Origin: Nitrososphaerota archaeon | Lineage (GTDB): Archaea > Thermoproteota > Nitrososphaeria_A > Caldarchaeales > Caldarchaeaceae | Length of the DNA: 18,135 nucleotides | Assembly: GCA_038891515.1 (NCBI GenBank) | Contig: JAWAEB010000029.1 | Span: 1 to 18,135, forward strand | Direction of reading: 5' to 3' | Shown: in pieces, positions 228 through 10,494 of the stretch | Numbering within the stretch: the first letter of the stretch is position 1 | Layout of the letters: each line of letters starts with the position of its first letter | Translations under genes and position numbers: made by a program | Notes under the pieces: generated by a model | What the model was told of the DNA's origin: nothing | Database searches by the model: none | What the model saw: only the letters and a program-made list of their open reading frames with translations

Positions 228-518
228 TCAGGGTTTAAATGGTTTGTATGATTTTAGATCTGTTAGTAATATTTTGCCTTTGTTGTTTAATGCTATGACT
301 GGTCGGGACATGCTCTTGTCTGCAAGCTCTATAAGGGGAGCTACTTCACCACGGCTCACATGCTTCCTATTCTTACACTCAACCAAGATGGCTACACCTT
401 TCTTCAGACATACTAGGTCTACTGGCTTTGATGCGGCGGCCCTTATGACAATCCAGCCCCTCCTCCTAAACAGGTCCCTCACCCTATACTCGAACCTCCT
501 ACCCTTCCGATAGCTCAC
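228..518 (-). CDS. hjc: Miniature Holliday-junction-resolvase-like nuclease (Hjc family, PD-(D/E)xK), 96 aa
   Basis: ORF track 228..518(-), GTG start. The translation shows the Hjc catalytic order: KGRRFEYRV (Glu), ASKPVDLVC (Asp), ILVECKNRK (E-x-K). It lies 43 nt downstream of the helicase gene on the same strand. It is shorter than the usual Hjc of roughly 120-145 aa. Confidence 0.7.
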   Translation of the reverse strand: MSYRKGRRFEYRVRDLFRRRGWIVIRAAASKPVDLVCLKKGVAILVECKNRKHVSRGEVAPLIELADKSMSRPVIALNNKGKILLTDLKSYKPFKP

Positions 519-540
519 GAAAGTTAATTGGCAAGTGATT

Positions 541-548
541 GTATTAAA
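541..548 (-). promoter_or_regulatory. Putative TATA box (TTTAATAC on minus strand) for the hjc-like gene
   Basis: An A/T-rich octamer is centred about 27 nt upstream of the GTG start. This fits a leaderless archaeal transcript. The call rests on sequence pattern only. Confidence 0.35.
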
Positions 549-561
549 GGCTTCAGCAAGA

Positions 562-2904
562 TTAGCTTATTATGTCATGTACTGAAACATATGTCACACC
601 GCCGATCTTTGTAATGGTTGTCATGGCCTTGAACACTTTTCCCTTTTTTATGTTGTCTCTTGGGCCGTTGTATCTTGACGGCTCCAGCCTTGCCCTGAAC
701 TTTTCATCCACCAACACAATGGCGAATCCCGGGTATATCTTTTCAATCGTTATCGTATGAATCTTCCCATGTGGTTGTTTCGACATGCTTCTCACCACTG
801 CTTTAGCCACTATCCTACCGCCGATACGTGTTACCAACCCGTCTCTGTAGAGGTGTTTTATTGCAGCTCTAATTGTGTCCGGTTTCTGGTCTGGATCCTC
901 CAGTATCTCCGCCTCAGATAGTCCTTTCAACCCCTGTTTGAGAAGCTTCTTATACAGGTATTTTGCGTAGTAGTATACTTCTCTGCTGCTGGGCCCCATC
1001 CTTGGAGGCCTGACCTCCTGCGGTTCCTCTGCCGATAGCTCTTCTAAAGAAGTCTCCGGCGATGGCTCGGCTTCTTCACCCCTCTCAGGTATCTCTATGA
1101 TATCTCCCTTCTCCTCAGGAATTTTTATTATTTCTGGCTCTCTTCTCCACGGCCATGGTTCTCCTGGAGTCGGTTTAGGCCCCTTCCTTGATATGGTGAA
1201 CTCTTTCAGCTTCTCCGAAACTTTCTCAAGTATTGTGGACATCTTCCTAGCACGTTTATACCCCTCCCTGAAGTAATATTCATCAACTGTGTTTCGCGTC
1301 ACTAGGATTGTCACCTTTCCGGGTAGTATTCTGCCTGTCCTGCCCCTCCTCTGGATGTATCTTATGCCCGAGACAGCAGGCTCGTAGAAGATCACATAAC
1401 CACATTCTGGTATGTCTAAACCCTCTTCACCTATAGATGTGGCCACCAGTGTGGTTATGTCGCCGTCCCTGAATTTTTGGAGTATTTTTCTCTGCTCCTC
1501 CTGGGTCATCCTGGGCCCCCCCTTACCCTCAGCTTTTCCAACAAATAGTTCAGCGGATATGTCTGCTTGTTTAAGCCTTTCAACTATGATCTCTGCGGTA
1601 TGTCTTATGTTGGCGAAGACCATAACCCTGTCGGTTGGCTTCTGTGTTAAATGCTGTGAGACAAGTTCGACAAGTCTTTCAAGTTTTGGATGATCTTTCT
1701 CCACTCTGCCTGCCTCAGTTAAGAGATTTTGAAACTCGTATGTTCTTGAGAGCATTTTATGACTTTTAAGCTCTGACCTAGAAACCTCCTCAAGGTATTT
1801 TCTTAGTGAGCGTATGTGCTGACTCTCCACAAGCTCCATAGCATGGTATAGGCTGAGTATCTCTGAGCACAGGGCCATGTAGTGCATGTTAAGTCCTTTG
1901 ATGCCTGACTCTATCTCAGCCCTAAGCCTTGCCATGAACTGGACTATAGCCCTCCTGTTGACAGCTTCTAAAGGTGTTTTGAACAAACCTGATCCATACA
2001 GCTTTTTTACCCGTTCTTCAATCATCTTCTTTACCTTCTGCCTCACATTCTCATACTCCTCTGGAAGGGCGACCCTCTCCCATGAAATGGAAATGCCCGG
2101 TATATGCCCCGCAACATCTTCATCGTCCTCACCCCTCCAAACTATTTTCTCAATCATAAGGTTTCTGCATACCTCCATTACTTTTTCCTCTTCGCTTCCG
2201 GGGCTTGCTGTTAGGGCAAGTATTAGAGGCCATGGACACCTCCTGACATATTCTGAAGCAATCTTGGTGTACGCGTATCTGCTCCTGCTTCTATGACATT
2301 CATCGAAGACGAGTAGTGAATATTCCTCAAGCCTTACAAGACCCCTCCTGATATCGTTCCAAACTGTCTGGGGTGTTGCGAAGAATATTTTTACTCCGCT
2401 GCTCCACAACCTCCCCCTCCCAGATGTTTCACCTGTTACTACCGCTGTCGTATCCCCTGTGCCGATGATTAGATGTTTTAGAAAGCTTTCCCTATGTTGT
2501 AGTGTCAACGGTTTTGTGGGAGCCATGACAAGTATCTTCGAGCCAGGATGTCGGTGAAGTAGCTCGGCAGCAACAAGTTCAGCTATCACCGTTTTTCCCA
2601 AAGCTGTCGGCAGGACGACAAGCGTATTGCCTTCCAAAGCCTCTTCAACCAAAACCCTCTGGTAGGCTCTGTCCTCAACAACTCCCTCCCTGACCATTGG
2701 ATGTTCGACATATTTCTTAGGGGTTGTCTGTTGTAGGTTCGGTGTTATTAGCCCTTCTGAGAGCTTGACTGCGTATATATGTTTGCACTCCTTTCTCCTA
2801 AACATGTAGTCGGGACATGTGCATGTAAACCCTGCTCCAGTAAATGTTACTGTGTATCTTACTGAAGGCTCTCTCTGGCTTGGAACTGTCCAAGTAACAG
2901 GCAT
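562..2904 (-). CDS. SWIM zinc-finger + Hef/FANCM/Mph1-type (COG1111-like) DEXH helicase with a non-nuclease C-terminal extension, 780 aa
   Basis: N-terminal CxCx(n)CxH signature (FTCTCPDYMFRRKECKHIY). SF2 motifs I PTALGKT, II FDECH and III LTASP. A long helical insertion sits between the two RecA lobes. Motifs IV VMVFANIR, V LVATSIGEEGLDIP and VI YIQRRGRTGR follow. The C-terminal ~220 aa are an acidic linker, a winged-helix-like segment and a beta-rich tail. No ERCC4 nuclease motif was recognised. Confidence 0.85.
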   Translation of the reverse strand: MPVTWTVPSQREPSVRYTVTFTGAGFTCTCPDYMFRRKECKHIYAVKLSEGLITPNLQQTTPKKYVEHPMVREGVVEDRAYQRVLVEEALEGNTLVVLPTALGKTVIAELVAAELLHRHPGSKILVMAPTKPLTLQHRESFLKHLIIGTGDTTAVVTGETSGRGRLWSSGVKIFFATPQTVWNDIRRGLVRLEEYSLLVFDECHRSRSRYAYTKIASEYVRRCPWPLILALTASPGSEEEKVMEVCRNLMIEKIVWRGEDDEDVAGHIPGISISWERVALPEEYENVRQKVKKMIEERVKKLYGSGLFKTPLEAVNRRAIVQFMARLRAEIESGIKGLNMHYMALCSEILSLYHAMELVESQHIRSLRKYLEEVSRSELKSHKMLSRTYEFQNLLTEAGRVEKDHPKLERLVELVSQHLTQKPTDRVMVFANIRHTAEIIVERLKQADISAELFVGKAEGKGGPRMTQEEQRKILQKFRDGDITTLVATSIGEEGLDIPECGYVIFYEPAVSGIRYIQRRGRTGRILPGKVTILVTRNTVDEYYFREGYKRARKMSTILEKVSEKLKEFTISRKGPKPTPGEPWPWRREPEIIKIPEEKGDIIEIPERGEEAEPSPETSLEELSAEEPQEVRPPRMGPSSREVYYYAKYLYKKLLKQGLKGLSEAEILEDPDQKPDTIRAAIKHLYRDGLVTRIGGRIVAKAVVRSMSKQPHGKIHTITIEKIYPGFAIVLVDEKFRARLEPSRYNGPRDNIKKGKVFKAMTTITKIGGVTYVSVHDIIS

Positions 2905-2906
2905 GC

Positions 2907-3095
2907 CTATATCTCTATCGTCTCCTTACTACTTGTCCTACTATCCCTCTTAGGGTTAACCTTCTCAGGCAATTTCATCAGCGTATCTAGTTTATCGTCG
3001 TTTATTATCTTCCTAAAATCCTCCAAATCTACATACCCTCTCAATACAAGTCTTCTCCTCTTCTCTGTCTGTCGAGAAGGATCTACATGGCTCAT
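2907..3095 (-). CDS. Hypothetical 62-aa protein, possibly the 3' part of a frameshifted ~105-aa gene
   Basis: ORF track. Its stop lies 2 nt before the helicase ATG. The sequence looks protein-like (RRRLVLRGYVDLEDFRKIINDDKLDTLMKLPEKV). AGGAG abuts the ATG with no spacer, so independent initiation is doubtful. Confidence 0.35.
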   Translation of the reverse strand: MSHVDPSRQTEKRRRLVLRGYVDLEDFRKIINDDKLDTLMKLPEKVNPKRDSRTSSKETIEI

Positions 3096-3222
3096 CTCCT
3101 ACCGTTATCCCCGCACCACCCGGAATCTTAACTAGGGAGACGCCCAGTACTGTGGCCCCCCTACTTTCCCAATTCTTGCCATCTCTCAGGAAGGCCTGAA
3201 GCCTGAAAACAACTGTTTCCAT
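3013..3222 (-). CDS. Hypothetical 69-aa protein, first ORF of the helicase operon
   Basis: ORF track. A strong Shine-Dalgarno-like AAGGAGG (plus-strand 3230-3236) lies 7 nt upstream of the ATG. The C-terminal 27 codons overlap the next ORF in another frame and look less protein-like. Confidence 0.4.
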   Translation of the reverse strand: METVVFRLQAFLRDGKNWESRGATVLGVSLVKIPGGAGITVGDEPCRSFSTDREEEKTCIERVCRFGGF

Positions 3223-3807: not shown

Positions 3808-5118
3808 ATGAACACGGATGAGGTTCTGGCTCTTCGGGACAGGTATATGGTGAGGGCTTTGGTCCCGAGGGAGCCTATAGTGGTAAAGAGAGCCTATGGA
3901 TTCTATGTGGAGGATCTTGAGGGAAACACCTACATTGACCTGTTCTCCGGCATAAGCACCAACAACTTGGGCCACTGCCATCCGGAGGTTGTCAAAGCCA
4001 TTGTGGAGCAGTCAGGCAGATTCATGCATGTCTCGGGATACTATAATCACAGCCTCGAGGTGGAGCTGGCTAGGACGTTGATAGAGCTTGCTCCCAAGAG
4101 TCTGGCCAAAGTCTTTTTCTGTAACAGCGGAACAGAAGCGGTGGACGGTGCTGTGAAGCTGGCCAAGAAACTGGCTTTCCATGAGGGGAGGCAGGGATCA
4201 AGCGTCATAGCTTTGCAGGGCTCTTTCCACGGGCGACTCTCCCTAACACTAGCCCTCACGGGTCAGAGGAAATACAAGGCTAAGCTGGGCAACTACGCCA
4301 ACTATCCGGGAGTCATCCACGCTCCATGTCCATACCACTACAGGCTTGGAGGTGACATGGCTCCAGACGAGTTTGGGAAGAGATGTGCCGACCAGGTGGG
4401 CGAGCTGATAGACTACTACGTAGCCGGTGACGTAGCTGCTGTTGTTGTGGAGCCCATCCTCGGAGAAGGAGGCATAATCGTCCCACCCGACACATACCTG
4501 CCTAGGCTTGAAAAAATATGCCGGGAGCAGGGTGTGCCTCTCCTCGTGGACGAGGTCCAGACAGGATTTGGAAGGACCGGCCGAATATTTGCCTGTGAGC
4601 ACTGGGGCCTCCAGCCAGAGGCTATGGCAATGGCCAAGGCCCTAGGGGCTGGTCTTCCTCTAGGTGCGATTGCTGTCTCTGAAAGGGTAGACGCTGGACT
4701 GGAGCCGGGCGACCACTTCAACACATTCATGGGGAACCCGGTGTCATGTGCTGCGAGCTTGGCTGGCCTGAACGTGCTCAAAAGGGAGAGGCTGCATGAG
4801 AATGCGGCGAAGCATGGCGAGATCATCATGAGGGTTGTGGGTGAGGCGATGGATGAGATACCGTTCATCGGTGAGGTAAGGGGCCGTGGCCTGATGATAG
4901 GTGTGGAGCTGGTGGAGGACCAGAGGACTAAAAAACCTCATCCACAGCTGGCCGACAAGACGAGAGCAGAGATGAGGAGAAGAGGCTACCTAGTAGGAGT
5001 TGGCGGCCTATACAAAAACGTTCTCCGAATACAGCCACCACTAATTATAAACCGTGAGACAGCCGAGAATTCAGCCCAAGCCCTAGTATCGTCCATCAAG
5101 GAATCAGCCAAAAGTTAA
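3808..5118 (+). CDS. Class-III pyridoxal-phosphate aminotransferase (acetylornithine/LysJ/GABA aminotransferase family)
   Basis: Family motifs seen: GNTYIDLFSG, CNSGTEAVDGAVKLAKK, and DEVQTGFGRTGRIFACEHWGLQPEAMAMAKALGAGLPLGA, which contains the PLP-lysine context. The first in-frame ATG is at 3808. The TTG at 3754 given in the ORF track overlaps the opposite-strand fragment. Confidence 0.9.
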   Translation: MNTDEVLALRDRYMVRALVPREPIVVKRAYGFYVEDLEGNTYIDLFSGISTNNLGHCHPEVVKAIVEQSGRFMHVSGYYNHSLEVELARTLIELAPKSLAKVFFCNSGTEAVDGAVKLAKKLAFHEGRQGSSVIALQGSFHGRLSLTLALTGQRKYKAKLGNYANYPGVIHAPCPYHYRLGGDMAPDEFGKRCADQVGELIDYYVAGDVAAVVVEPILGEGGIIVPPDTYLPRLEKICREQGVPLLVDEVQTGFGRTGRIFACEHWGLQPEAMAMAKALGAGLPLGAIAVSERVDAGLEPGDHFNTFMGNPVSCAASLAGLNVLKRERLHENAAKHGEIIMRVVGEAMDEIPFIGEVRGRGLMIGVELVEDQRTKKPHPQLADKTRAEMRRRGYLVGVGGLYKNVLRIQPPLIINRETAENSAQALVSSIKESAKS

Positions 5119-5226
5119 CGTTGAAGGATGGTGTAACTAAGAACTCAGTATGCCGTGTAGAACCTATAAACTTTCTCTCCCCCAATTCTTGAAATACGTT
5201 TTATCATACCTCGCCATACTATAGAC

Positions 5227-5977
5227 ATGGTTTCCCGCCGCAGCTTTCTGAGGAGCGGAAGCCTAATCTTCGCCCTTGTAACCTCTGCCATAATAGGCTT
5301 AGTTGTATTGACAAGCCTTGTATTTTGGGAGAGAAGAGAGGTGAGTGGCAGAAGACCTGAGGCTGGGCGGATGATATCCTTACCTAGACCGAGGACTGAA
5401 GGGCCGATGTCAGTTGAGCAGGCCCTACAACGCCGAAGGTCAAGGAGAAATTACCGAAATGAGCCTCTCAAGTTGGAGCATGTTTCGCAGCTTCTCTGGG
5501 CTGCTCAAGCGGTTACGGCGCCCCATCTATGGACTGGACTGAGGACAGCTCCTCCGCCGGCGGACTCTACCCGCTCGAGACGTATATAGTCGTGAGAGAG
5601 AACGGTGTTGAAGAGTTGGAGGCCGGCGTCTATCACTACAATCCCCACAAACACGAACTCTCAGCTGTCGTAAAAGGTGACTATAGTAGAGACTTGATGT
5701 CAGCATGTGTGGACCAGGAATGGGTTGGTCAGCGGCTTTTAACATAGTGTTCACGGCCGTGGTTGAGAGGACGAGCGTTAAGTATGGCGGCAGGGCCCTC
5801 CAATACATCTTCCAAGAGTCGGGCCATGCGGCGCAGAACATATACCTACAGGCAGAGGCCCTGGGCTTGGGATGTGTGGTTATTGGGGCCTTCTACGAGG
5901 ATGAGATACGCCTTATTCTTGGGATAAATGAGGCCGAGCTTCCTGTATACGTGATGCCGGTTGGCCGGCCCGCTTAG
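5227..5977 (+). pseudogene. SagB-type nitroreductase-family dehydrogenase with a twin-arginine signal, split over three frames
   Basis: ORFs 5227..5589, 5529..5747 and 5705..5977 together form one protein. It starts with a Tat-like SRRSFLRSG motif and a hydrophobic helix. Family motifs follow: RRSRRNYRNEPL, then SAGGLYPLETYIVV...GVYHYNPHKHEL, then ERTSVKYGGRALQYIFQESGHAAQNIYLQAEALGLGCVVIGAF. The frame changes occur near 5551-5556 and 5727-5735. Confidence 0.75.
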
Positions 5978-6539
5978 CCAGCTGAACATTTACCGAGCTG
6001 TCTTAGTGTTGCTTGTCAGCGTGATAGCTTATTTTATGGCGGTGGGCGTGGGGCCCCTCACTGAAGGGCACGTGGGCGGCCTGATGTCTATGGACCTCAA
6101 AGGAGATGGCTGGCTTGGTTATAGACTAGGGTATGCGGAGGCCGTGCTGCTCTTGGCCGCTCAGGTATATCTGTTCAGGCCAGGGTTCATCTCCAAGCCC
6201 GCCTGGCTGGACATCCACTGCCAGCTCACCACGGTGGGAGGAGTATTGATTCAGGTCCATGCAGGGTTCCCCTATTCGTTCGGCTACTGGACGCTCCCAC
6301 GCATGTATCCGGAGCTGGGAGTCTTTGGCTTAGTGGGCCTTCAGGGTGTGGCATCGTGGCTGGTCCTAGCATTGATAGCCAGCGGGTTCTTCGGAAGATA
6401 CATTTACCGTAAAGCAGCCCAAAGGAGCAGAGCCTTCAGATGGTGGCACAGCGCACACGCCATCACCTCAGGCCTACTCTACGTCACCGGGTTCATACAC
6501 CTTCTACTAGCCGTTCAGCTAAGATACCTCACGGCCTAG
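5961..6539 (+). CDS. Polytopic membrane protein with His residues inside predicted helices (possible haem-b/cytochrome-b-like)
   Basis: ORF track, TTG start overlapping the nitroreductase 3' end by 17 nt. Several hydrophobic segments are present. Conserved-looking His contexts include QVHAGF and RWWHSAHAITSGLLYVTGFIHLLLA. The function is inferred only. Confidence 0.55.
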   Translation: MAGPLSQLNIYRAVLVLLVSVIAYFMAVGVGPLTEGHVGGLMSMDLKGDGWLGYRLGYAEAVLLLAAQVYLFRPGFISKPAWLDIHCQLTTVGGVLIQVHAGFPYSFGYWTLPRMYPELGVFGLVGLQGVASWLVLALIASGFFGRYIYRKAAQRSRAFRWWHSAHAITSGLLYVTGFIHLLLAVQLRYLTA

Positions 6540-6604
6540 ACATCAATAAAGGCTGAGAGGGACGGGCTCTCCCGAGAGTATGGGGTGTATAAAAAATTGG
6601 GAGT

Positions 6605-6778
6605 TTATGGCTTAATGGCTTTCTTCACTTTCTCAAGAACGTCGGGTGGAATTTTCTCTATCTTGTGTGCGTGTTTTGCGTGTGCGCTGAGAATGGTCAT
6701 CAGCTCATCCGTCGTGGAAGCGTTTTTCACTTCAAAGGAGCAGTTGGGCATCACATCCCGGCAATTAAAGCTCGGCAT
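6605..6778 (-). CDS. DUF1059-family small metal-binding protein, 57 aa (below the ORF-track length cutoff)
   Basis: Hand translation of the minus strand gives MPSFNCRDVMPNCSFEVKNASTTDELMTILSAHAKHAHKIEKIPPDVLEKVKKAIKP. This matches the DUF1059 pattern as I recall it: an N-terminal Cys pair (C6 and C13 here), the F-E-V context, and an H-A-x-x-x-H motif. A TTTATTA box lies about 30 nt upstream. The plus-strand ORFs 6585..6803 and 6665..6892 are its antisense shadows. Confidence 0.75.
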   Translation of the reverse strand: MPSFNCRDVMPNCSFEVKNASTTDELMTILSAHAKHAHKIEKIPPDVLEKVKKAIKP

Positions 6779-6858
6779 AGTTTTCTATCTTTTTTGGCGA
6801 TAATAAACTTTTCCCCAAAAATTGAGCCGATTTTTCCGCCACCCCACAACCTCGTGCA

Positions 6859-7219
6859 TCAAAGCTTGACGTTACCTCCGCCCCAGCCCTGAGGCATGTC
6901 TATGATGAGGAAGAAGACATTATTCTCCACGGGAGATATAGTTACATCTGCCTCCCCATCTTCCACATAGTAGGCCACGAGTCTACCATACATCTCGGAT
7001 GTGAACCCAACCTTGACCTAGGTGACAGAAGGGCCTACACTCAGGATGTCGGTTATCTGTAGTAGCCCGTTTTCAGTGAGCTTGATTACCCGCTCCGAGG
7101 CGGCTATCTCCTGGCCGGCGACTATTGGATAGACTGTCAACAGGGCCGCAGCCAACAGTAGTATCCAGAGCCAAGTCCACCGGCAACCAGAATTAGGCGT
7201 TATTAACCTTAAACATCAT
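6859..7219 (-). pseudogene. Disrupted small secreted or membrane-anchored protein gene
   Basis: One minus-strand frame reads ...CRWTWLWILLLAAALLTVYPIVAGQEIAASERVIKLTENGLLQITDILSVGPSVT-TAG-VKVGFTSEMYGRLVAYYVEDGEADVTISPVENNVFFLIIDMPQGWGGGNVKL-stop. The internal TAG is at 7018-7020. The only ATGs upstream (7219/7216, MMFKVNNA) are in another frame. Confidence 0.4.
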
Positions 7220-7243
7220 ATACCGCTGAACAACAATGAGAGG

Positions 7244-7278
7244 GGGCCCGTGGCCTAGAATGGATAGGGCGTCGGCCT
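7244..7278 (+). tRNA. Orphan 5' half of a tRNA gene (positions 1-33; Arg-like body), with no 3' half in the window
   Basis: Folds as acceptor GGGCCCG, then UG, D-stem GCCU/GGGC with loop AGAAUGGAUA, G26, 5' anticodon stem UCGGC, then C32 U33. The following AUUGUGGUUUAG has no complementary GCCGA, T-arm or 3' acceptor. The Arg-like assignment is from memory of archaeal tRNA-Arg bodies. Confidence 0.6.
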
Positions 7279-7765
7279 ATTGTGGTTTAGAGTGTTGTTT
7301 GTCCTTCTTTTTTCTTGGGTTTTTTCTTAAAACTCTGTTGCAGTATGAGCATTTATCCTTGTTTCTGAATGTTTGCTGACATACGCTACAAAAGCATTCT
7401 CCCCTATCATATCTTGGATGCCTGCCTGAAGGAGTATAAAGAGGCTCTTCATGGTCTTTATAGCTGAAGTGAGGCATCCCGTTCTCAGCCCATAGGGTTA
7501 TCCTAACCTGTCTCTCGTCATGGGACTCTATGTGGAAGAGGTTTTTGTAGGCTGACGGTATTCTAAGCCTGAAGCCTGCTGTAACATCATACCTTCCCTG
7601 AAACATGTCTTTCTTAACGCAGGCTGTATAATCTCCTTTATCTGGTATGTTTAGTGCTTGCGATACCGTTTTAGGCAGTTTAAGCTTCATGCTTCCACCG
7701 TTCTCGTATATTATTCTTGCGACGCATTCAAAAGCGTTAGGAAGGAAGATTTGCTGGTGAGCCAT
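7277..7765 (-). CDS. Hypothetical 162-aa protein: duplicated AbrB/B3-like strand-Pro motif plus a C-terminal CxxC...CxxC zinc ribbon and basic tail
   Basis: ORF track. Two internal repeats of the same pattern are present (KLKLPKTVSQALNI and RLRIPSAYKNLFHI). The zinc ribbon is CSVCQQTFRNKDKCSYCNRVL and the tail is RKNPRKKKDKQ. Its TAG stop (7277-7279) overlaps the last 2 nt of the tRNA fragment. Confidence 0.55.
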   Translation of the reverse strand: MAHQQIFLPNAFECVARIIYENGGSMKLKLPKTVSQALNIPDKGDYTACVKKDMFQGRYDVTAGFRLRIPSAYKNLFHIESHDERQVRITLWAENGMPHFSYKDHEEPLYTPSGRHPRYDRGECFCSVCQQTFRNKDKCSYCNRVLRKNPRKKKDKQHSKPQ

Positions 7766-9279: not shown

Positions 9280-10494
9280 TCAAAGTATGAACCTTAGTGA
9301 AAACAGGGTATGAAGGGAGAGGAGGGGTGACTTCAGAAGGCCTAGTCGAACCAAGCATTGCTGGAGTCTCCGTTGTTTTCTCTCGATCGTGAATCCTATG
9401 TGTTTGTAGAACGTCAGCCGAAAGGCAGCAGGAATGTGGAGAATGTAGACGTCCTTCTTTGTATAGTGTATTTTACCGCTTCTCGGCTCTTTGATAGGTG
9501 TTCCACTCTTTGTTTGAAGACGTGGTTCTGTCGTATTTACACCCATTGAAGACAACAGACTCCAAATATAGTTCAGCAGTGCTAAGTCAGTGTTGGATAC
9601 AGTTATCACTCCATCCTTCCGTACACTGCCTTCGCTGTCAAAGAACCCCCTTAGGAATGCCGACTTGCATTCTTCGTCATGTCCCACGAATTTTCTGACT
9701 TTCTCTAAGTTGATGGGCTTCATCAGTAGTTGGTATAGCGTTTTGGACTGAACGGCGATGACGAATAACCTTCCTGACCATTTCGGCTTTGGCGGCTCTC
9801 GTCCCAAAATTACTCCAAGACACCTTGAGAATTCCTCGGCGAACTCTCTATCCTTCACCATCAACCCTATGGACGCTCTTTGATAGGATTTTTGAGGTCG
9901 TTTTTTCCGCCACACGTATCCGTCGCCAGCGACAACTCCGATGACGTACGCGAGCTCTTTAGAAGGTCTGAGAACTTCTACTGATGGTATTCGTATGCCG
10001 TTGTATGGGTTATGGATTTGTCGAACCCATTCACTGATGTGGGATTTTCTTAACGTTATGCCACGTTCCTGCCTTATGATATCAATGATTCTACTGTAGG
10101 AGAACCCTTCTTCCCTGAGTCTTCTCACGTCTTCGTATAGTTTTATCCGCAGCTCTCTCGGCATGTATGGGCCTCTTCTTACTGTCGTAGTGTGTTTAGG
10201 AAATTTTTGCGGGATTGTTTCAGATGTCTTCGAACCCCTCCCCTCTCCAGATGCCCAGGCCTTGTCGAGGGATGGCGGGCATCCAGACCATCCCCCGCCC
10301 CCTGCAGCATTGGGTTGCTCTGGCCCGGGAGCAGACCCCTCCCCAACGCCGGAGGCAGGGCCTTCAACCATGTCCCCCGTGGACATGGCTCTCCCGGGAA
10401 GGCCTGGGCCGCCGGAGAGCATCCCCGACAGGAGGAAAGAACCTCCCGCCGGAGAACCACTCTCCAGCGGAAGGCCCTCCCATCGGGGAAACAT
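9280..10494 (-). CDS. Free-standing HTH + double-motif LAGLIDADG homing-endonuclease-like protein; the conserved part probably starts at the ATG at 10164
   Basis: LAGLIDADG motif 1 is LAYVIGVVAGDGYV and motif 2 is AFLRGFFDSEGSV. The N-terminal HTH-like segment is RRLREEGFSYSRIIDIIRQERGITLRKSHISEW. The first 110 codons of the maximal ORF are Gly/Pro-rich low complexity and lie in a region open in five of six frames. The real start is therefore more likely MPRELRIKLY, giving 9280..10164 and 294 aa. Confidence 0.8.
   Translation of the reverse strand: MFPRWEGLPLESGSPAGGSFLLSGMLSGGPGLPGRAMSTGDMVEGPASGVGEGSAPGPEQPNAAGGGGWSGCPPSLDKAWASGEGRGSKTSETIPQKFPKHTTTVRRGPYMPRELRIKLYEDVRRLREEGFSYSRIIDIIRQERGITLRKSHISEWVRQIHNPYNGIRIPSVEVLRPSKELAYVIGVVAGDGYVWRKKRPQKSYQRASIGLMVKDREFAEEFSRCLGVILGREPPKPKWSGRLFVIAVQSKTLYQLLMKPINLEKVRKFVGHDEECKSAFLRGFFDSEGSVRKDGVITVSNTDLALLNYIWSLLSSMGVNTTEPRLQTKSGTPIKEPRSGKIHYTKKDVYILHIPAAFRLTFYKHIGFTIERKQRRLQQCLVRLGLLKSPLLSLHTLFSLRFIL

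Follow-up and report, generated by a model that had tools for sequence, protein, structure and literature searches.

A nuclease-less Hef-type helicase with an N-terminal SWIM finger, encoded beside a compact Hjc and a small conserved partner gene in the Caldarchaeales

The 18-kb contig JAWAEB010000029.1 (18,135 nt), from a metagenome-assembled genome (MAG) of the Caldarchaeales (Aigarchaeota, Nitrososphaerota), carries near its first position a large helicase gene followed by the gene of a miniature Hjc-type nuclease, and is referred to here at its full length as the window. An original prediction, made from the nucleotides alone, had described this pair as co-transcribed and as a possible two-gene module of a Hef/FANCM-type helicase without a nuclease domain and a separate nuclease. 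The open reading frames (ORFs), the gap between them and the helicase motifs quoted in that prediction were all present, on the minus strand, which it had not stated. The helicase is identical to a protein (P0001) of a Nitrososphaerota archaeon annotated as 'helicase-related protein'. The features of the locus, including a disrupted third gene that had been overlooked, are collected in Table 1.

On the evidence of its sequence, the helicase is a nuclease-less Hef/FANCM-type superfamily 2 (SF2) enzyme and belongs with the 'ERCC4-like helicase' (COG1111) of Aigarchaeota and Thaumarchaeota. SF2 motifs I, II, III and VI (PTALGKT, FDECH, LTASP and IQRRGRTGR) were found in the translation and were invariant in an alignment of 16 homologues. 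Pfam matches were obtained to DEAD, Helicase_C and PF21210, the helical inter-lobe domain of Hef, the last of these falling on the thumb insertion with 37.6 bits against a cut-off of 27. The best solved relative was the helicase domain of P. furiosus Hef (1wp9), which matched continuously over the whole core (E 2.5e-109); FANCM and the RIG-I-like/Dicer helicases trailed far behind (LGP2, E 7e-35). The NCBIfam Hef model (NF010337) was matched with E 5e-166 over its positions 3-512 of 781 only, the score of 554 bits remaining below the 610 cut-off, and Pfam gave no ERCC4 match in the protein.

The linker behind the core contains the conserved motif RKGPxPxPGxPWPW (residues 573-586; window 1175-1219, minus strand), which stands between the core and the variable acidic segment and includes the positions P578, G581, W584, P585 and W586 that are invariant in the homologue alignment. 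The motif is specific to the Caldarchaeales, and other branches of the family carry P..NPM[ST]..E[IL] there instead. No conserved candidate for a PCNA-interacting (PIP) box was seen in the linker in the homologue alignments.

In the model of the last 151 residues (pLDDT 86), three helices (model residues 11-31, 35-39 and 46-58) and a hairpin (62-71) make up a winged helix (WH), behind which comes a five-stranded barrel of the oligonucleotide/oligosaccharide-binding (OB) fold. In Foldseek searches the winged-helix half recovered ArsR, IclR and GntR structures, and a weak Pfam GntR match was located at residues 663-697. The barrel recovered the S1 domain of RNase R (E 6e-4), the cold-shock domains of UNR (TMt 0.68), aIF2alpha, NusA and Rrp4/Csl4, and the best match of the C-terminal module was RNase R, over 145 columns. 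A loop motif in the barrel, GPRELIKKG, is found family-wide. No XPF, Mus81 or Hef nuclease was among the top 50 structural matches of the C-terminus. The possibility that this end of the protein is a diverged ERCC4 domain, on which the original prediction had made its reading depend, is ruled out by the modelled fold, because it is a winged helix and OB barrel without an XPF-type nuclease among its structural matches.

A profile of the WH-OB module was searched exhaustively against 1.84 billion cluster representatives and matched 150 of them. In each of the ten long matches that were checked, the module forms the C-terminal end of a Hef-type helicase, and the others are mostly short, fragments among them; a word-indexed search with the C-terminal 151 residues returned a single fragment. 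In species-representative genomes the module was found in the Caldarchaeales, Nitrososphaerales, Nitrosopolaris, Conexivisphaera, Gagatemarchaeum, Methylarchaceae and Hadarchaeota. An orthologue with 60% identity to the window helicase lies in a C. subterraneum MAG (locus L018), and the helicases outside the Caldarchaeales show 35-40% identity, start at the core and are without the SWIM finger. A Hef subfamily of the Nitrososphaerota and Hadarchaeota, without a nuclease, is marked by the WH-OB module. The barrel is also found on its own, as a separate module or a gene fragment: ORFs consisting of the barrel only were seen at L020 (9907-10239) and L021 (9929-10264), the second in the MAG that also holds the full-length helicase locus L015.

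The N-terminal SWIM zinc finger is confined, within the helicase family, to the Caldarchaeales branch. Its ligands, C28-x-C30-x9-C40-x-H42, were invariant across the 16 homologues. The Pfam SWIM model (PF04434) scored 18.6 bits on the window protein (E 1.4e-3), just under the 19.6 cut-off, and is a precomputed match in most close homologues. With these results, Pfam, NCBIfam, the homologue alignment and the structural model bear out the domain order first proposed for the helicase, namely a SWIM finger, a Hef core, an acidic linker, a winged helix and a beta-rich tail, without ERCC4. Standalone small ORFs with a SWIM motif resembling the helicase N-terminus (YTVT..CSCPDY..CKHVYAVE) were noticed 1-6 kb from SWIM-less helicases in the Nitrososphaeraceae (L055 301-519, plus strand; L065 1579-1848, L070 1733-1924 and L074 1622-1891, minus strand). 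These ORFs hint that SWIM and helicase are associated as separate genes there too.

The 96-residue protein had been assigned to Hjc from an E...D...ExK pattern, and the assignment stood. The Pfam Hjc model (PF01870) matched with 43.6 bits against a cut-off of 21.1 (E 2.9e-11), and the Hjc chains 1gef, 4tkd and 1hh1 of the PDB matched at E 1e-5 to 6e-5. The catalytic residues are E10, D34 and E47-x-K49, of which D34, E47 and K49 align with the D and E-x-K of the Sso Hjc chains. In the alignment of the mini-Hjc family, whose members are 96-111 residues long, E10 and D34 are invariant, and conservation of E47 and K49 reaches at least 90%. The modelled structure (pLDDT 92) shows the topology a1-b1-b2-b3-a2-b4-b5 and ends after b5 and a short strand. 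Its top 24 Foldseek matches in the PDB were all Hjc (E 1e-6 to 1e-4, TMq 0.61-0.82), with the highest TMq, 0.82, given by Pfu Hjc. Against the NCBIfam Hjc equivalog (NF040854) the score was 20.2 bits, with a cut-off of 70. The protein is thus, by profile and predicted fold, a compact Hjc with an intact catalytic pattern that is too divergent for the NCBIfam orthologue threshold. In one subgroup of the family (P0174; L008-L010, 6001-6297) an arginine replaces the catalytic lysine; its members lie within a run of unannotated genes beside an AAA_5-like ATPase, surroundings that may belong to a mobile element or virus.

The adjacency of the two genes, on which the original prediction had staked its reading, is conserved in related genomes. 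Among 14 distinct loci with a SWIM-helicase, 13 have a mini-Hjc gene nearby, at no more than 165 nt in 12 of them and at 3 kb (within 3.1 kb) in one more. From the side of the nuclease, a helicase was found within 4.4 kb in 35 of 46 informative metagenome loci, and the other 11 were without one despite flanks of at least 5.9 kb on each side. Five arrangements of the pair were observed (hjc before helicase, helicase before hjc, divergent, convergent, and 3-4 kb apart), and the outer neighbours are unrelated between loci. The proximity has survived rearrangement, because the gene order in the window differs from that in its closest relatives, L011-L014. Linkage maintained through such varied arrangements and amid unrelated flanks argues for selection on helicase-hjc proximity. 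The SWIM fusion on the helicase and the neighbouring mini-Hjc co-occur in the Caldarchaeales.

A dedicated helicase-linked Hjc paralogue was considered and is unsupported, as linked and stand-alone mini-Hjc sequences interleave in a neighbour-joining tree (computed without support values). This pattern appears to fit one orthologous resolvase family in which the linkage was gained and sometimes lost, and the mini-Hjc is most likely the general resolvase of the lineage rather than a dedicated paralogue.

Other genes were seen beside the pair at individual loci. In archaeon HR02 (L003, 1-2755), mre11 and rad50 lie directly upstream of a cluster of the small partner gene, hjc and the helicase, and a role in DNA repair is supported because they adjoin it. 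In 10 loci of the Caldarchaeales and Hadarchaeota (L001, L012-L014, L017-L019, L027, L043) the helicase has a TOPRIM gene at a distance of 0.2-3.8 kb; judged by eye it is archaeal DnaG-like, and we take it to be the exosome-associated DnaG. At L077 the helicase gene (5001-7361) has GmrSD_N, OLD-like TOPRIM ATPase and HATPase/NOV_C genes as neighbours, which amounts to a defence-island-like context.

Table 1. Features of the helicase-hjc locus in the window; residue numbers refer to the helicase.
Feature	Position	Strand	Description
Mini-hjc gene	228..518	minus	ORF, 96 aa, GTG start
Helicase-hjc spacer	519-561	minus	43 nt; hjc downstream of helicase
TATA-like box	542-548	minus	TTTAATA, in the 43-nt spacer, centred 27 nt before the hjc GTG
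Helicase gene	562..2904	minus	ORF, 780 aa, ATG start
Beta-barrel, residues 714-778	571..765	minus	Five-stranded, S1/cold-shock-like OB fold; predicted structure
Winged helix-turn-helix, residues 640-707	784..987	minus	Predicted structure
Linker, residues 552-639	988..1251	minus	Conserved RKGPxPxPGxPWPW, then variable acidic segment
Hef-type core, residues 71-551	1252..2694	minus	RecA lobe 1, thumb insertion (292-377), RecA lobe 2
N-terminal SWIM zinc finger, residues ~17-49	2758..2856	minus	C28, C30, C40, H42
Disrupted ~105-aa partner gene	2907..3222	minus	N-part ORF 3013..3222, C-part ORF 2907..3095, in different frames

No neighbour of the helicase is more widely conserved than the third gene, with 31 loci by clustering, and its existence does not sit well with the idea of a two-gene module. 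In the window it is represented by two small overlapping ORFs, both of which matched, in tblastn and hidden Markov model (HMM) searches, one intact ORF of about 105 residues at other loci. The N-part ORF covers positions 6-34 of the HMM and the C-part ORF positions 45-108. The frameshift lies between 3096 and 3121, and the reading frame is restored when a single G is taken out. This copy lacks about four residues, and the invariant F27, N46-P47, G52 and G59 are altered in it; it represents a pseudogene or else an error of assembly. In about 20 loci outside the Caldarchaeales (Hadarchaeota, Nitrososphaerales, Conexivisphaera, Methylarchaceae and Gagatemarchaeum), the gene immediately precedes the helicase on the same strand, the gap ranging from -55 to +121 nt, and it is near the helicase in most Caldarchaeales loci as well. 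Family members are found at L022-L054 and L069 (for example L024 1356-1685, L028 3173-3526, L053 246-575). Their consensus, ..FLxxGxDWxR..PGxFVLKxP...LAVExNP..G..KRRGLxLR...VNP...EVLEI, ends in a conserved acidic ...EVLEI tail, and profile searches of Pfam, NCBIfam, PADLOC and the PDB gave no match (best E 0.16). Read by eye, the alignment at most hints at an alpha-beta-beta-beta-alpha topology of the dsRBD or SRP14 kind. The helicase start follows the stop of this upstream gene after 2 nt, and the gene looks like the real operon partner of the helicase.

The proposed co-transcription of helicase and hjc finds no support. The TATA-like box in the spacer lies at a distance from the hjc start codon of about 27 nt, a spacing typical of archaeal leaderless transcripts, and may serve as an independent promoter from which a leaderless hjc mRNA would start. 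Comparable AT-rich boxes precede hjc by a similar distance in L019 and L001, and the helicase start has such a box ahead of it where hjc precedes the helicase; all were read by eye. A scan for bacterial promoters and terminators, whose coverage does not extend to archaeal promoters, gave no signal beyond that of shuffled sequence (6 found, 5.0 expected). Because of the TATA-like boxes, and because the genes are divergent or convergent in many relatives, independent promoters are likelier than a helicase-hjc operon.

The rest of the window is ordinary archaeal chromosome, with a class-III aminotransferase, V-ATPase subunits, CDC48, EF-1beta and tRNA-Gln. A nitroreductase gene is broken into two ORFs in different frames (5227-5589 and 5705-5977, plus strand; Pfam positions 2-31 and 87-167) and is, besides the small partner gene, the second disrupted gene on this contig, again as a pseudogene or through an error of assembly. 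The ORF at 9280-10494 (minus strand, 404 residues) contains a LAGLIDADG_3 homing-endonuclease domain at residues 275-367, and its N-terminal 270 residues were without a family match.

Taken together, these data suggest that the locus encodes a fork- or junction-remodelling translocase genomically coupled to the compact resolvase of the lineage, a reading to which a probability of roughly 55% is assigned. Direct support exists for the identity of the domains, for the integrity of the catalytic motifs and for the conservation of the linkage. In the mechanism envisaged, the helicase would use its thumb insertion and WH-OB module, which may act in a wedge-like manner, to recognise four-way junctions or stalled forks, and would spend ATP on fork regression or branch migration; a dimer of the mini-Hjc would then cut the resulting junction. 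The WH-OB module would stand in for the nuclease and HhH2 module as the DNA-recognition end of the protein, and the SWIM finger, the acidic linker or both might, more speculatively, recruit Hjc or the small partner. The genetic interaction of Hef and Hjc in Haloferax, the cooperation of Hjc with motor proteins in Sulfolobus and the mre11-rad50 genes beside the HR02 cluster speak in favour of this interpretation. Several observations weigh on the other side. No Hjc neighbour of the helicase was found outside the Caldarchaeales, Nitrososphaerales and Hadarchaeota included, in the flanks available; one of the 14 SWIM-helicase loci (L077) has no Hjc within 5 kb; and several mini-Hjc subgroups, the Calditenuis-type group among them, stand alone. 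Each of the two genes has a putative promoter of its own, the C-terminal barrel is structurally closest to RNA-binding S1/cold-shock domains, and the most widely conserved partner is broken in the window, where its contribution is perhaps missing.

A bolder form of this interpretation is a three-part, physically coupled machine, in which the SWIM-Hef translocase, the ~105-residue protein as adaptor and the minimal Hjc, docked via the SWIM finger or the WH-OB module, would amount to an archaeal equivalent of RuvAB-RuvC assembled from parts of the FANCM family. Such a machine is a tentative proposal and, on present evidence, rather unlikely; were it real, Hef and Hjc would be shown cooperating and not acting as alternatives.

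The main rival is that helicase and mini-Hjc are neighbours without partnership, that is, independent housekeeping genes of genome maintenance whose proximity stems from shared regulation or drift. The separate TATA-like boxes at about -27 of each gene would be expected on such a view, as would the frequent divergent or convergent orientation, and mini-Hjc occurs alone in other lineages and in some Caldarchaeales, just as the helicase occurs without an Hjc neighbour outside that order. In Haloferax, moreover, the pathways of Hef and Hjc are alternatives and do not cooperate (PMC7776575). Simple neighbourhood is nevertheless hard to reconcile, without selection, with a proximity kept through at least five arrangements with unrelated flanks, and the Hjc linkage coincides with the SWIM fusion on the helicase; mere neighbourhood is clearly the less probable account. 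A minor rival takes the winged helix and S1-like barrel, an assembly that recalls the N-terminus of RNase R, as the mark of a helicase acting on RNA or RNA:DNA hybrids, with a function in RNA metabolism or in the removal of R-loops. The Foldseek matches of the barrel to RNA-binding S1 and cold-shock domains, with RNase R the best, point in this direction, as does the TOPRIM gene near the helicase in 10 loci, if it is the exosome-associated DnaG that we assume. The Hef/FANCM clade contains the RNA-sensing RIG-I/Dicer helicases. Set against this, the DNA-fork enzyme Hef is by far the closest relative of the core (1wp9 versus LGP2), the linked nuclease is a DNA-junction resolvase, mre11 and rad50 adjoin the cluster in L003, and OB folds bind single-stranded DNA as readily as RNA. 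An RNA or R-loop substrate is improbable in view of these points.

The original prediction had suggested a PD-(D/E)xK protein replacing the XPF domain, which would make the pair a two-gene equivalent of euryarchaeal Hef. That a nuclease gene adjoins a nuclease-less Hef helicase, with a linkage conserved in the lineage, agrees with it. Hjc cuts four-way junctions symmetrically, however, a mode that differs from the flap or fork incision made by XPF, and the position of the nuclease and HhH2 module is filled by the WH-OB module, not empty. Nuclease-less helicases without an Hjc neighbour in the Nitrososphaerales and Hadarchaeota argue against the replacement as well, and related genomes are reported to keep a separate ERCC4-type nuclease (PMC3082918, PMC7819960). 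Replacement of XPF by the mini-Hjc is unlikely. The further suggestion of an anti-phage helicase-nuclease pair draws on the frequency with which helicases and PD-(D/E)xK nucleases are combined in defence systems, and on the homologous helicase of L077 among GmrSD-like and OLD-like genes. No PADLOC system model fitted the locus: only partial, generic matches to helicase lobes were returned, and none to the mini-Hjc or the ~105-residue protein. The family is conserved across the phylum among ordinary cellular genes with no evident mobile element, a lineage-wide spread consistent with vertical inheritance, and the aminotransferase, V-ATPase and CDC48 genes of the window are of the same ordinary kind. 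A defence function is very unlikely.

Part of this system has been described before. In C. subterraneum, in Thaumarchaeota and in a few euryarchaea, the ERCC4-like helicase (COG1111) and the ERCC4 nuclease are reported to be encoded by separate genes (Nunoura et al. 2011, PMC3082918), and a separate ERCC4-type nuclease in related genomes is also recorded elsewhere (PMC7819960). The nuclease-less helicase itself is therefore already known, its split from XPF having been published in 2010-2011. The aigarchaeal and thaumarchaeal protein belongs to the same family as the window helicase and is encoded apart from the ERCC4 nuclease; in the searchable literature it is treated merely as a phyletic marker. 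Searches on SWIM-Hef, on Hef in Thaumarchaeota and on Hjc in Aigarchaeota retrieved only statements on the split Hef, and neither the fusion to SWIM nor the WH-OB module, the linkage to Hjc or the ~105-residue partner was found described in the literature.

The lineage of the Hef/FANCM helicases gave rise to FANCM and, according to one review (PMC4571572), to the helicase domain of Dicer. The targeting and nuclease partners of its archaeal members are known from a few euryarchaea only, and the present family represents a different solution, with a WH-OB module in place of the nuclease and HhH2 domains and a small constant partner, to which a SWIM finger and a genomically tethered Hjc have been added in one order, the Caldarchaeales. 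If the linkage reflects a complex, the helicase would be a candidate motor for Hjc outside Sulfolobus, and the Haloferax-based view of Hef and Hjc as alternative pathways only would be challenged. The components are small, derived from thermophiles and easy to express, so that the idea is directly testable, and a biochemical test would be worthwhile for the additional domains, for the conserved linkage to Hjc and for the small partner.

Compared with known systems, the window helicase shares with euryarchaeal Hef (P. furiosus, 1wp9) the SF2 core with a thumb-like insertion and a disordered linker after the core, but it has the WH-OB module instead of the ERCC4 nuclease and HhH2 and an additional SWIM finger at the N-terminus. 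The nuclease-less Hef of T. acidophilum, which binds PCNA via a PIP box at its C-terminus (PMC4838364), provides an earlier example of a Hef helicase without a nuclease domain; that protein stops after the core with the PIP box, whereas the window helicase runs about 230 residues further, through linker, winged helix and OB barrel. The mini-Hjc has its fold and the catalytic E...D...ExK in common with archaeal Hjc (1gef, 1hh1/4tkd and A. fulgidus 2wcw), but its 96 residues compare with 120-145 in those enzymes, and the structural matches span about 80-100 columns of the longer chains. In Sulfolobus, Hjc cooperates with PINA and Hjm, both branch-migration ATPases (PMC6061704); the candidate motor here is a Hef-type helicase and not PINA or Hel308. 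In Haloferax a hef hjc double deletion cannot be made, which constitutes the genetic interaction referred to above (PMC7776575). The remaining parallels, to FANCM with FAAP24/MHF, to RuvAB-RuvC and to RecG, are functional analogies, with homology limited to the FANCM helicase core. FANCM, a translocase of the Hef family, has no nuclease activity and relies on small proteins as partners, RuvAB-RuvC couples a branch-migration motor to a resolvase, and RecG is a fork-remodelling helicase that uses an OB-fold wedge.

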